DNA of 41,798 bases, from IMG/VR virus record IMGVR_UViG_2563366805_000010, positions 1 through 41,798 of that record. The stretch is one strand, 5' to 3'. The position numbers and the translations under genes are program-made. Origin of the DNA: a virus. Taxonomy: Duplodnaviria; Heunggongvirae; Uroviricota; Caudoviricetes. Position 1 is the first letter of the stretch. The number at the start of each line of letters is the position of its first letter. The notes under the pieces were generated by a model. The model worked only from the letters and a program-made list of their open reading frames with translations, was not told where the DNA came from and ran no database searches. Shown in pieces: positions 23,174 through 41,798 of this stretch.

Positions 23174-24406
23174 ATGAAATATTTTTTCAATACCCGGCTG
23201 GGGGAAACCCGCTATCAGCTGGCTGACGGCTCGCTGTTGTGTAAAGACGTGCCGATAGGTCGAACGGGTAAGCAGCTCTACGGCGCTGCCGATCTGCCAA
23301 ACCTCAAACCCGACAAGCTCGGTGAGATAGTCGTAACGCGTTCTCCTGAGCAGGTACTCCATCCGGCCACGCTCGCCTCATTCGAAGGGATGAGCATCAC
23401 GATCCTGCATCCTGAAGATGAAAACGGGAATGTGCGGCTGGTAAATCCCGAGAACTGGAAAGAGCTTGCGGTCGGGCATCTTCAGAACGTTCGGCGCGGG
23501 ACTGGTGACCAGTCTGATTTGATGCTGGCAGACCTTATCGTCAAAGACGAAAGCGCCATTCAGCTTATCGAAGATGGTCTGCGCGAAGTGTCGTGCGGCT
23601 ATGACGCGGAGTACGAGCAGACCGAGCCAGGTAAAGCCGAGCAGGTCGATATTACCGGAAACCATGTGGCTCTTGTCCCTAAAGGCAGAGCCGGAAATCG
23701 TTGTGCAATTGGAGACAGAGACACAATGGCAAATCAAAAGAAAAGCTGGTGGACCCGCATGCGCACGGCCATCAAAACGGGTGACGCTGACACCATGAAC
23801 GAACTGCTGGACTCTGCGCCAGCGGCGGTAACGGGTGACGAAGGGGATCTGCCGAGCGGCGTTAACCTCAACATTAACCTTTCACCGCAGCAACCATTGC
23901 CGGACAAAAAGCCGGAAATGGGCGGAGATCCAACCGGCGACGGCGAGGACGATATCAAAACCTTGCTCAAAGCCCTGCTGGCTAAGCTCGAAGGAACTGC
24001 GACGGGCGATAACGACAATAAGCCTGACGAAAAAGACAAAAAAGATCCGACCGGCGACGGCGAGGACGACGAAGAGGAAACCACGATTACCGGTGACTCT
24101 GCCTATCGTGCCGAGGTTATCGTCCCGGGTATCGATCTGAGCCGTAAGGTGAAACCGACCGCGTTCAAACGTGATGTGCTGGCTGCCGCTGACAAAACAC
24201 TGGTTCGCCAGGTTGTCGGTGATGCGGATATCCGCAAATTGCCCAAGCAATCGGTAGATATGGCGTTTAACGCCGTGTCAGAGATTGCCAAAGGGCGAAA
24301 CACCCGCAGCACCACGGGCGATGCACAACGTCCAAATATGGGCATGACCAGCATCGCTTCCCTGAACAAACAAAACGCCGACTTCTGGTCTAACCGCAAA
24401 GGATAA
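23174..24406 (+). CDS. Putative scaffolding/head maturation protein
   Basis: 410 aa; acidic repeat-containing central region (DPTGDGEDD twice); position between head morphogenesis and capsid genes. Confidence 0.45.
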   Translation: MKYFFNTRLGETRYQLADGSLLCKDVPIGRTGKQLYGAADLPNLKPDKLGEIVVTRSPEQVLHPATLASFEGMSITILHPEDENGNVRLVNPENWKELAVGHLQNVRRGTGDQSDLMLADLIVKDESAIQLIEDGLREVSCGYDAEYEQTEPGKAEQVDITGNHVALVPKGRAGNRCAIGDRDTMANQKKSWWTRMRTAIKTGDADTMNELLDSAPAAVTGDEGDLPSGVNLNINLSPQQPLPDKKPEMGGDPTGDGEDDIKTLLKALLAKLEGTATGDNDNKPDEKDKKDPTGDGEDDEEETTITGDSAYRAEVIVPGIDLSRKVKPTAFKRDVLAAADKTLVRQVVGDADIRKLPKQSVDMAFNAVSEIAKGRNTRSTTGDAQRPNMGMTSIASLNKQNADFWSNRKG

Positions 24407-38201: not shown

Positions 38202-38878
38202 GCAAATACACCGAACTGATCACTAACTACCACGCTACCAAGCCACTCTTTTTTGACCATATAGATCTGAGCACCCGCCCGCTGATTGATGTGTCCAGCA
38301 CTATGTCAGGGCTTATAACAGCCTTCGATATCGATACTGCTGTCGGTGTACAGCTCGACATCCTCGGTCTGTGGATCGGACGCAGTCGCATAGTCAGCCA
38401 GCCAATTAGCGGAGTTTATTTCAGCTGGGACACTGACGGGCTTGGGTATGACCAGGGCATCTGGCAAGGGCCATATGATCCTGATTCTGGCTATACGACG
38501 CTAAGCGATGAGACGTACCGCATCATTCTGAAAGCGAAAATCGCTATCAACAACTGGGACGGTCGGAACGACTCTCTGCCTCCCATCCTTGACGCTGCTA
38601 CCGCAGGCTCAGGCCTGAGGATGCAGATCGTCGACAACCAGGACATGACGATTTCGGTCTGGGTTTTCCCTGAAACTGATATTTCTGATGCGTCTCTCGA
38701 ACTGATCGCCGCTATCAAACAGGGCTATCTCACCGTTAAATCAGCTGGCGTATGGGCCGGTGATGTTGAAACGCCTTCGGTAGAAACACCGTCAGAAGGC
38801 TCTAAATTCTTTGGGTTTGATATGGATAACGAATACATCGGCGGGTTCGATGTTGGAGCATGGGGGACAATACTCTAA
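38198..38878 (+). CDS. Tail protein (Mu gp48 / YmfQ-like, DUF2313)
   Basis: 226 aa directly upstream of tail fibre, as ymfQ in e14. Confidence 0.6.
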   Translation: MSKYTELITNYHATKPLFFDHIDLSTRPLIDVSSTMSGLITAFDIDTAVGVQLDILGLWIGRSRIVSQPISGVYFSWDTDGLGYDQGIWQGPYDPDSGYTTLSDETYRIILKAKIAINNWDGRNDSLPPILDAATAGSGLRMQIVDNQDMTISVWVFPETDISDASLELIAAIKQGYLTVKSAGVWAGDVETPSVETPSEGSKFFGFDMDNEYIGGFDVGAWGTIL

Positions 38879-39819
38879 TGGCAATAAACAACTTTAAACC
38901 TTTCGCGCTTGATCCGAACGCTAACGTCACCTCACAAGCTGACTGGGAAGCACTTCCGGCTCTGCTTTCAGGGTTTACGGCAGGTAAAGCATCCAGCGCA
39001 CAGGTCAACAAAGCTATTCGGCAAGCCAGCTTTATCGCGGCAGCGTTGGCGCAGTACACCGCCAACAAAAGCGGGCTGGATGTGCTTGATGATGGAGACC
39101 TGAACGGGTTTATATCCAAAATGAGGACCGCTTTCGGGAAAGATTTCCAGGCGCTTGATGCCACGCTGTCGGCATTAGCTGGGCTCGCAACAGGTGCAAA
39201 TAAACTCCCATATTTCACTGGAAATGATACAGCAGCGCAGACTGATTTAACTTCTGTTGGCCGTGACATTATTGGGAAAAATACTATTGCTGACATTCTC
39301 ACATACCTTGGTTTAGGAGAAGGCTCAGCATTGCCTGTTGGCGTACCTGTTCCGTGGCCCTCAGCCACTCCGCCAACAGGCTGGCTAAAATGCAACGGAG
39401 CAGCTTTTTCTGCTGAAGAATACCCAGAACTGGCAAAGGCTTACCCGACAAATAAATTGCCTGATTTACGTGGTGAGTTTATTCGTGGCTGGGATGACGG
39501 ACGTGGTATGGATACGGGGAGGGCAATATTATCAGCTCAGGGCGATGCCATACGTAATATCTATGGTGAGTTCAAGACTGTAAACACCGAAAATTATTCA
39601 ATATGGGAATCAGTAGACTCGTTTAAGGGGGCAGTGGTGCCTTTGAATCCCTCAACGAACAATAGTTATTTCTCCTTAATCAGAAGTATGGTGACTGAAA
39701 GAGCAGATGGCGCTGTTTACCCAAAAGTGATTGGCCTTGATGCTTCAAGAATTGTTCCAACTGCAAACGAAAACCGTCCTCGTAACATTGCCTTTAATTA
39801 TATCGTGAGGGCTGCCTGA
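38878..39819 (+). CDS. Tail fibre protein (currently expressed variant)
   Basis: 313 aa; constant N-terminal part, crossover site at codons for ILTYLGLGEG, C-terminal receptor-binding part with PWPSATPPTGW...LPDLRGEFIRGWDDGRG. Confidence 0.8.
   Translation: MAINNFKPFALDPNANVTSQADWEALPALLSGFTAGKASSAQVNKAIRQASFIAAALAQYTANKSGLDVLDDGDLNGFISKMRTAFGKDFQALDATLSALAGLATGANKLPYFTGNDTAAQTDLTSVGRDIIGKNTIADILTYLGLGEGSALPVGVPVPWPSATPPTGWLKCNGAAFSAEEYPELAKAYPTNKLPDLRGEFIRGWDDGRGMDTGRAILSAQGDAIRNIYGEFKTVNTENYSIWESVDSFKGAVVPLNPSTNNSYFSLIRSMVTERADGAVYPKVIGLDASRIVPTANENRPRNIAFNYIVRAA
39296..39321. repeat. Left recombination site of the invertible segment
   Basis: TTCTCACATACC-TT-GGTTTAGGAGAA; its right half matches the reverse complement of the right site 11 of 12. 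Confidence 0.55.
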
Positions 39820-40421
39820 TGAATAAAGCCGTATTAAATAACGAACTCATTGCCACAAAGACGGGAGATATTACCGTTTATAATTATGATGGTGAAACGC
39901 GGGAATATATTTCTACATCAACTGAATATCTTGCTGTTGGCGTCGGTATCCCGGCATGTTCTTGTTTAGATGCGCCAGTTACACATAAAGCTGGTTATGC
40001 TATCTGCCGCTCAGCAGATTTTAACTCATGGGAATATGTGCCAGACCATCGCGGTGAAGTTGTCTATAACACCGAAACGGGAGAATCAAAAGAAATCACA
40101 GCTCCGGGTGATTATCCTGAAAACACGACCACTATCGCCCCGTTAACGCCATACGATAAATGGGATGGTGAGAAATGGGTAACAGATACTGAGGCACAGC
40201 ATAGCGCAGCAGTCGAAGCGGCAGAAGCACAGCGTCAGTCACTGATTGATGCTGCAATGGCTTCCATTAGTCTGATTCAACTGAAATTACAGGCCGGGCG
40301 GAAGCTGACGCAGGCAGAAACAACCCGCCTTAACGCTGTGCTGGATTACATTGACGCGGTGATGGCAACAGATACCAGCACAGCGCCGGATGTCATCTGG
40401 CCTGAACTGCCGGAGGCGTAG
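39819..40421 (+). CDS. Tail fibre assembly protein (Tfa)
   Basis: 200 aa; stop/start coupled to fibre gene; C-terminal [10 protein letters not shown]. Confidence 0.75.
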
Positions 40422-40812
40422 GCCATTCAATATCGAGTGCTGTTGAAGTATTAATACGCATCAATAGCACTCGATATTTTTTCCATGCCAGTAACAGTTT
40501 CGTTTCATCATTTGTTGCCATACCTAAATCAACCGCATCCTGAAGCGGAGCTATTACATTCGTTGCCTCTGCTATCAGTGCAGATTTCTTTTCATCATTT
40601 ATTAAGGCTAATTGTTCTGGTGTTGGAGAAGGACGGTCAACAATGACAGGATGACCGTTCTCACCACAGGTAATCATTTTTGTTACACTCTGTGCATTAA
40701 TCAGTGTTTTCCACTCTGATTCCGAGATTTCCACTGCATCATCAGGAATATTGGTGCCGTGAAATTCAGTCGAATAAAATCCGTTTGTCGATGCAGAATA
40801 AAAATATGACAT
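40393..40812 (-). CDS. Alternative tail fibre assembly protein (Tfa')
   Basis: 139 aa on minus strand; C-terminal DIEWPTPP parallels the plus-strand Tfa; start 5 nt after the minus-strand fibre cassette stop. Confidence 0.6.
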
Positions 40813-40816
40813 TTTG

Positions 40817-41177
40817 TTAATATCCCATTGCAATGTAATACGCATCAGCAGATGAACCGTATCCTGAACCGGGCGATACTGTAATATCAAATCCAGTGTT
40901 ATGGACATTTGTCGCCGATACAGTCGGCTGCCCTGACGCGCCAGTAACGTTCAATGTAACTGTGACAGCAAGGACTCTTGAGAATGTCATCGGGAACCTC
41001 ATCCCGTATATTGAAGATACATTCGGGGAGCCATTCAACTGACCGCACTGTAAAATTAATCCAGACGGAAATTTTTGCGCAGCAGCCGTTGCGGTATTAC
41101 TTGACGCGAACAGGCTCATATCAGGTATCTGATTCGCCCCTGTACCTACATTCCTTTTAGCTGCTTCTCCCAAACCA
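40817..41177 (-). other. Silent alternative tail-fibre C-terminal cassette
   Basis: Minus-strand frame open from the right crossover site (codons for VGLGEAAK) to TAA at 40817; no start codon or SD of its own. Confidence 0.6.
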
Positions 41178-41190
41178 ACCTTTTTTATAA
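41165..41190. repeat. Right recombination site of the invertible segment
   Basis: TTCTCCCAAACC-AA-CCTTTTTTATAA, resembling gix/hix-type sites (memory-based comparison), about 60 bp upstream of the invertase gene. Confidence 0.55.
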
Positions 41191-41220
41191 CCATCAAAAA
41201 TCTGGTGATGCTTCGCCGTT

Positions 41221-41243
41221 TCTCCTGTTTTCATAACAGGAGA
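41221..41243 (+). promoter_or_regulatory. Perfect 9-bp-stem hairpin containing the invertase Shine-Dalgarno
   Basis: TCTCCTGTT-TTCAT-AACAGGAGA; the 3' arm holds AGGAGA located 7 nt upstream of the pin ATG. Confidence 0.35.
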
Positions 41244-41249
41244 AATCCC

Positions 41250-41798
41250 ATGATTTACGGTTATGCCCGAGTATCAACAAACCACCAGGACACTGAATTG
41301 CAACTAACGGCGCTCAAGTCAGCGGGTTGTGAGAAAATTTTTGAAGAGCATGCCAGCGGGAGGAAATCGAATCGGCCGGTTCTAAAACGGCTGATCGCCA
41401 CTATGCAGCCGGGGGATGAACTGGTGGTCTGGAAGCTGGACAGGATAGGCCGCAACGTTCTGCATGCGCTGTTGATGTTCCAGCAGTTACAGGAAAAGGG
41501 TATCAACTTCCGCAGTATTACCGATGGCGTGGATCTCAAAACAGCCAGCGGCCGCTATAACTTTCGTAACATCCTTTCCGCAGCACAATATGAATCTGAT
41601 CTTAATAGCGAACGTACCTTAGCAGGGCTGGCCGTAGCCAGGGCAAAAGGGCGAGTTGGTGGTCGCAGGCCTAAGTTCACGGATGAGCAATGGCGGGAAA
41701 TGGGGGAGCGGATGGCAACCGGTGAATCACGACAAAGCGTATCAAAAACGTATGGAGTAGGGCTCTCAACTCTGTATAAAAAGTTTCCAGCTAGCTGA
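41250..41798 (+). CDS. pin: Serine-recombinase DNA invertase (Pin/Gin/Hin family)
   Basis: MIYGYARVSTNHQD with catalytic Ser, resolvase-type catalytic domain and C-terminal HTH (GESRQSVSKTYGVGLSTLYKK); stop codon is the last triplet of the window. Confidence 0.9.
   Translation: MIYGYARVSTNHQDTELQLTALKSAGCEKIFEEHASGRKSNRPVLKRLIATMQPGDELVVWKLDRIGRNVLHALLMFQQLQEKGINFRSITDGVDLKTASGRYNFRNILSAAQYESDLNSERTLAGLAVARAKGRVGGRRPKFTDEQWREMGERMATGESRQSVSKTYGVGLSTLYKKFPAS

Follow-up and report, generated by a model that had tools for sequence, protein, structure and literature searches.

A perfectly paired hairpin lying just upstream of a serine DNA invertase gene, close to the end of a 41,798-nt phage sequence (the whole of which we refer to as the window), probably acts at the mRNA level as a translational throttle that keeps the invertase scarce. 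On the basis of sequence comparison and modelled folding energies, we put the probability of this reading at roughly two in three (0.68). Transcripts spanning 41218-41246 would fold into a 12-pair hairpin, in which an upstream arm resembling the anti-Shine-Dalgarno (anti-SD) sequence, UUUCUCCUGUU, would pair with the strong Shine-Dalgarno (SD) sequence, AACAGGAGAAA. Access of the 30S subunit would then be possible only through rare opening of the stem or from a standby position, so that very little invertase would be produced and inversion of the adjoining tail-fibre segment would be infrequent. Late-operon transcripts that read through into the invertase gene would be silenced in the same manner, and what translation is left could arise from breathing of the stem, a standby site or the action of a helicase.

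The hairpin is formed by a perfect inverted repeat at 41219-41245, with 11-nt arms that are 100% complementary (TTTCTCCTGTT / TTCAT / AACAGGAGAAA; Table 1). The original prediction had described a perfect hairpin at 41221-41243 with a stem of 9 bp; its sequence is as described, but the stem is 11 bp, two pairs longer than proposed. In RNA form, an extra closing pair between G41218 and U41246 brings the total to 12 pairs, with an energy of -15.4 kcal/mol at 37 °C, and as single-stranded DNA the hairpin has an energy of -10.2 kcal/mol (z = -8.4). When the leader RNA was folded in contexts of 109 nt and 251 nt, the stem was present every time with the SD retained in its 3' arm, which bears out the earlier proposal that the ribosome-binding site is sequestered: AGGAG at 41238-41242 lies within a stem of 11-12 pairs in all folds. 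Among perfect hairpins with loops of 3-8 nt, it is the longest in the entire window. Across 200 dinucleotide-preserving shuffles of the whole window, any hairpin of at least 11 bp appeared in 8% (mean of 0.1 per shuffle), a count made before demanding any overlap with a ribosome-binding site. A search of 40900-41798 with the Rfam 15 covariance models returned zero matches at E ≤ 1.

Table 1 Positions of the invertase, its leader elements, the invertible tail-fibre segment and a comparison leader. Positions refer to the window unless an accession is given.
Feature	Position	Strand	Details
Tail-fibre S	38860-39819	+	
Left crossover site, 26 bp	39296-39321	+	TTCTCACATACC TT GGTTTAGGAGAA; within the tail-fibre gene, at the ...YLGLGE... 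junction
Tail-fibre assembly U	39819-40421	+	
U'	40908-40393	-	
Sv'	41197-40817	-	
Right crossover site, 26 bp	41165-41190	+	TTCTCCCAAACC AA CCTTTTTTATAA; hix/gix/pix type
hp1	41204-41217	+	GGTGA-TGCT-TCGCC; -5.2 kcal/mol (range to -7.1); abuts the main hairpin
Hairpin 5' arm	41219-41229	+	TTTCTCCTGTT; includes CUCCU, the 16S rRNA anti-SD sequence
Hairpin loop	41230-41234	+	TTCAT
Hairpin 3' arm	41235-41245	+	AACAGGAGAAA; SD AGGAG at 41238-41242, 7 nt 5' of the ATG
Serine DNA invertase gene, 182 aa	41250-41798	+	MIYGYARVSTNHQDTELQ...; phi80 PinL type; stop codon forms the final three bases of the window
L384 leader	ATG at position 211 of JACCDZ010383531.1	reverse complement	

The gene downstream had originally been called pin, a name that does not hold, as the invertase is not that of e14 and belongs instead to the PinL type of phi80. 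Its ATG at 41250 is the same start as that given in the NCBI PGAP annotation of an E. coli prophage, and an identical database protein (P0001) carries the Pfam domains PF00239 (resolvase) and PF02796 (HTH_7). The invertase is 100% identical to that of mEp237 and approximately 52% identical to Gin and Cin, alignment with which revealed that the catalytic-domain motifs are kept. PinL of phi80 is a close relative, with 92.7% DNA identity over the region.

Exposing the invertase SD carries a far higher predicted cost than exposing the others in this phage. We defined opening energy as the free-energy cost of unpairing the SD within a 70-nt context, and calculated it for the 42 window ORFs bearing a recognisable SD: the invertase ranked first, at 12.4 kcal/mol, against a median of approximately 2.6. 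Within a 75-nt context the opening cost was 14.9, compared to 5.6 ± 2.1 when the upstream part was shuffled, and none of 200 shuffles reached the native value. The SD:anti-SD duplex is worth -7.4 kcal/mol, about half of what the hairpin itself provides. Swapping out the 5' arm in silico relieved 12.2 kcal/mol. A rough estimate from these energies gives a reduction of about 240-fold with a Boltzmann factor of 0.45, the empirical value of Salis-type models, and a far larger one at strict equilibrium; as a counterpoint, a stem of such stability would leave almost no translation at equilibrium. The highest opening energy of the 42 ORFs, the failure of all 200 shuffles to match it and the conservation of the arm described below together argue for the original proposal that the hairpin limits translation of the invertase, which we regard as probably correct.

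Within the clade of PinL-type invertases, the ten-pair core of the stem (TTCTCCTGTT/AACAGGAGAA) is conserved without change across approximately 30 distinct leaders, with a single exception that has one mismatch. The hairpin was found at 75 of 80 IMG/VR loci encoding invertases 79-100% identical to that of the window. Aligning the stem across 77 sequences (the window, phi80 and the 75 IMG/VR loci) yielded 16 distinct leaders of 65 nt, in which nine of the 12 pairs are invariant. The outermost T:A pair is replaced by C:G in variant B, with both sides altered and pairing compensated, and a T>C singleton is present in the 5' arm of L019. The loop differs among relatives (TTCAT, TTCAC, TTTAC, TTTAT), as do most of the 30 nt upstream. 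A metagenome scan anchored on the coding sequence alone recovered the unchanged stem core in 16 of 17 distinct leaders. In a scan of an IMG/VR sample anchored on MIYGYARV, the hairpin preceded every 'MIYGYARVSTNHQDTELQ' invertase of the clade, and was absent from unrelated recombinases that share these first eight residues. It is likewise absent from the invertase orthologues of Morganella and Kluyvera (71-74% identical), and these distant sequences are therefore of no use for covariation.

Covariation is accordingly limited to the single compensatory pair, in a stem that otherwise hardly varies, so that from the alignment alone, base pairing in RNA and a symmetric site in DNA look the same. 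Since the 5' arm encodes nothing and the upstream ORF in frame with the invertase is unconserved, pairing is the simplest reason for the conservation of this arm. The hairpin also accompanies the invertase gene into lambdoid phages that lack an invertible segment (phi80, HK225 and mEp237).

SD occlusion is recurrent in the invertase family, and it is not universal. One locus (L384; Table 1) encodes an invertase of the same clade, 84% identical to that of the window, and has the same crossover site, together with a leader unrelated to the window's. Its own anti-SD hairpin (ACAUCACUUC / 15-nt loop / GGAGUGAUGU, the arms also being given as ACATCACTTC / 15-nt loop / GGAGTGATGT) comprises 10 pairs including one G·U, with an energy of -11 kcal/mol. 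Opening of its SD costs 8.9, compared to 3.1 ± 1.8 for shuffled sequences, of which one in 300 matched the native value. P2-like leaders display another arrangement, with the start codon (AUGCU) held by GGCAU and the SD by UCC(G/U)G, and a single pair altered on both sides; their opening energies are 7-12 kcal/mol, attained by 0-1 of 200 shuffles. The leader of P1 cin is borderline (0.035), and in the leaders of Mu/D108 gin, Fels-2 and relatives from Morganella, Cedecea and Pantoea, SD occlusion was no better than chance.

The leaders of mEpX1-type invertases pair UUCACC(UG) with (YU)GGGUGA by means of wobble pairs across a 17-nt loop; their opening energies were not significant (0.25 and 0.065), the automatically picked SD window lying upstream of GGGUGA. 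These invertases (L089, which is mEpX1 itself, L056, L061-L064 and L093) are chimeras with a leader of their own, the first ~60 residues being Gin/Cin-like (MQIGYVRVSTNDQNTDLQ...) and the remainder nearly identical to the PinL type, with 99% DNA identity from approximately codon 54. We also observed a conserved motif, TGGCATCAT, located 50 nt 5' of the invertase ATG in the P2-like leaders (L177-L249), with related motifs (TGGCATGAT) in the leaders of Mu/D108 gin and Fels-2.

Because the occluding leaders are non-homologous and include long loops and G·U pairs, they favour a throttle acting on RNA over an operator acting on DNA. In the latter case, a dimer, either of the invertase itself or of a phage or host regulator, would occupy the 25-27 bp palindrome and prevent transcription of the invertase gene. 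Such an operator would fit a perfect palindrome with an invariant stem whose sole observed change is symmetric. Both arms begin with TTCTCCT, three of the four genuine crossover half-sites have TTCTC as their outer bases, and the first six or seven bases of the arm match the two inner half-sites; TTCTCC, however, simply complements the SD. We scored the arms using a matrix built from 21 inner half-sites, with TTNTC...AAACC in a 26-bp, 12+2+12 arrangement as the site model. The better arm scored -2.5, next to -2.4 for the degenerate outer half of the right crossover site, but approximately 4% of all window 12-mers score equally well. Moreover, half-site positions 8-12, which read AAACC in the model (A8 in 21 of 21, A9 in 20 of 21), read GTTTT or GTTAT in the hairpin, and the spacing is 12+1+12 instead of 12+2+12. 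The window holds no second palindromic copy, other occurrences of TTCTCCTGTT being single SD complements, and other invertase leaders carry unrelated anti-SD stems in its place, with G·U pairs and loops of 12-17 nt, a replacement that is sensible only as RNA. We therefore consider an operator improbable, and with it the protein-binding palindrome that the original prediction offered as its alternative. A hix/gix/cix/pix crossover site was rejected outright, the two arms scoring -2.5 and -5.7 compared to 17.5-18.5 for true inner half-sites.

A second, smaller hairpin, hp1, abuts the first on its upstream side. Pairing holds in 97.5% of its cells across the 16 distinct leaders, the loop varies and U·G exchanges with C:G, and hp1 is lost or weakened in three leaders (L403, L380 and L421) in which the main hairpin is kept. 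It is thus less constrained than the main hairpin, and the candidate roles for it are a weak attenuator, a stabiliser of the 5' end or part of a promoter. A consensus scan for sigma-70 promoters between 41165 and 41219 revealed no convincing match. By eye, two weak candidates can be seen: a -10-like TATAAC at 41186-41191, in the outer half of the right crossover site, which may be an element of the invertase promoter, and TTTATA-N17-GATGCT, which would start transcription at approximately G41218, right where the hairpin begins. Either candidate would place the whole hairpin in the transcript, in the latter case at its extreme 5' end. By inference, the mRNA includes the 5' arm, and both translation and the rate of inversion are reduced.

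These leader elements could instead serve transcription or mRNA stability, with hp1 and the U-rich 5' arm forming a leaky terminator or attenuator, or with the main hairpin shielding the 5' end of the mRNA from RNase E. In a terminator scan, hp1 plus TTTCTCCTGT indeed scored as terminator-like, hp1 is mostly conserved apart from its loop, and a start at G41218 would leave the hairpin at the very 5' end of the message. Yet hp1 is weak, its U tract is interrupted, it can be lost or damaged while the main hairpin stays, and the main hairpin is without a U run on either strand. Neither an attenuator nor a protected 5' end would explain why the SD is constantly included in the stem, or why it is also paired in unrelated leaders, and we regard such a role as quite unlikely. 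That the palindrome is neutral and merely rides along with the invertase gene is scarcely credible: close relatives are near-identical across the region, so that part of the conservation reflects relatedness, but the 8% shuffle figure already makes a chance origin unlikely, and the invariance of the stem columns against differing loop and leader columns, over 16-17 distinct leaders with invertases 79-100% identical, practically rules it out.

Several other identities were considered for the stem and rejected. An intrinsic terminator does not fit, as no U tract comes after the stem, where the sequence reads AAATCCCATG on the + strand and ACGGCGAAGC on the - strand, and the terminator scan lists only hp1. 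Nor does an RNA thermometer of the fourU or ROSE type, the stem being perfectly Watson-Crick paired with energies of -17.3 at 30 °C, -13.9 at 42 °C and -11.7 kcal/mol at 50 °C.

We also looked for elements that could open the stem. Ahead of the invertase ATG, its reading frame stays open as far as 41133, with a GTG at 41205 and an ATG at 41208, and this open frame explains the N-terminally extended invertases found in some databases (P0001, 211 aa; P0002, 201 aa). A stem-melting upstream ORF or N-terminal extension from either codon was rejected: neither has a usable SD, most variants lack the start codons and variant B has a disrupted frame. Such extended proteins, arising from an in-frame upstream GTG or ATG, should therefore not be annotated. 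Translational coupling to a tail-fibre ORF was also rejected, since none reads into the leader on the + strand in the window orientation, and the gene layout suggests that the inverted orientation likewise offers no coupling ORF. An alternative partner for the 5' arm, in the style of a riboswitch or attenuator, was found neither by eye nor in longer folds.

The invertase adjoins a tail-fibre segment that inverts in nature, since a related prophage (L021) carries the core-to-core block 39308-41178 in the opposite orientation, at 94.5% identity, with 41164-41250 direct. Overall, the window is similar to Citrobacter phage Omnitron (94.8% identity), and the invertase region was matched in 162 of 5,426 complete E. 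coli genomes, at a chromosomal site. In E. coli LR-33 (L371, NZ_AP027523), a member of this set, the prophage lies at yciI-tonB, the attachment locus of phi80, and the invertase is its last gene, adjoining the attachment site; the structural genes of this prophage are of the Omnitron-like myovirus type, not lambdoid. Homology breakpoints between phages fall within the right crossover site, with HK225 and Omnitron matching from 41164-41167 onward and SfI, SfII, SfIV and SfV matching the inverted Sv' as far as 41184. The position of these breakpoints indicates that the leader and invertase move as a unit. No invertible tail-fibre segment is annotated beside the invertase in phi80, mEp237 or HK225, and phi80 retains a tail-collar remnant only.

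Further repeats were observed inside the segment. At 40429-40484, an 18-nt inverted repeat (AATATCGAGTGCTGTTGA ... TCAATAGCACTCGATATT, 94% complementary, with a 14-nt loop) is followed by TTTTTT; it begins 8 nt past the stop codon of U (40421) and lies inside the inverted U' coding region. This looks like a + strand terminator that would be active in one orientation only, in which case late read-through toward the invertase may differ between the two orientations. Another two inverted repeats of 11 nt, both perfect and with arms 27-30 nt apart, are present at 39333-39381 and 40334-40385, within the coding regions of S and U, respectively (GCCTGTTGGCG/CGCCAACAGGC; CGCTGTGCTGG/CCAGCACAGCG).

A wider claim can be built on the translational throttle, namely that hiding of the SD or AUG is a selected and repeatedly reinvented rate-limiter of tail-fibre invertases, such that the stability of the stem, and not the strength of the promoter, would mainly set the frequency of inversion, with the stem perhaps opened by a trigger. 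The set on which such convergence would draw consists of the PinL type, the L384 type, the P2-like leaders, cin and possibly the mEpX1 type, for which the statistic is not significant. We hold this to be possible but doubtful; if true, a specific stem-opening trigger would make host-range switching conditional. More doubtful still is that the palindrome doubles as a non-catalytic binding site through which the invertase represses its own synthesis.

DNA invertases must be kept at very low levels if host-range switching is to be rare, and how this is achieved is only partly understood. A conserved stem that hides the SD would offer a simple control point for the level of invertase, one that seems to recur in several lineages. 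For engineering, removal of the 5' arm should raise invertase output from these cassettes.

In its overall layout, the locus resembles the Gin, Cin, Pin and Hin systems, which likewise combine an invertase of resolvase and HTH_7 domains with 26-bp inverted sites, an S/U - U'/S' cassette and an invertase gene just outside it. The perfect SD hairpin, in contrast to Gin and Cin, is restricted to the PinL clade, and the literature searched, with the phi80 genome paper outside its scope, yielded nothing relevant on translational control of Gin-family invertases. For phi80, a phage familiar as a laboratory contaminant, the GenBank record (JX871397) carries the same 11-bp repeat, IR3, at 23919-23945, in the same position 5' of pinL. 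There IR3 is labelled as a repeat only, its function unstated, as are IR1, IR2 and IR4, and the leader stem would account for it; of the tail-fibre segment, phi80 retains no more than a remnant, whereas that of the window is intact and invertible.

A more distant parallel is provided by the resolvases of Tn3 and gamma-delta, in which accessory res sites permit autoregulation. Here, too, a palindrome precedes a serine recombinase gene, and its half-sites recall that of the crossover site but are spaced in a way unsuited to catalysis, a layout that would permit autorepression. In a comparison made by sequence alone, however, the hairpin matches only the outer 5-7 nt of the half-site, and the inner AAACC is absent.

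The closest likeness is to leader hairpins that sequester the SD, in which a pyrimidine-rich upstream arm likewise pairs with the SD a few nucleotides before the start codon, with a stability well above that of the SD:anti-SD duplex. De Smit and van Duin reportedly studied such a structure in the initiator hairpin of the MS2 coat gene, and the early transcripts of phage T4 e (lysozyme) and soc carry SD-sequestering leader hairpins. In T4 a second, internal promoter yields an unlocked transcript, whereas the window shows no evidence of one. Taken together, these comparisons place the hairpin within the ordinary SD-sequestering type, to which the established mechanisms apply, as a refinement of known biology that calls for no new principle.
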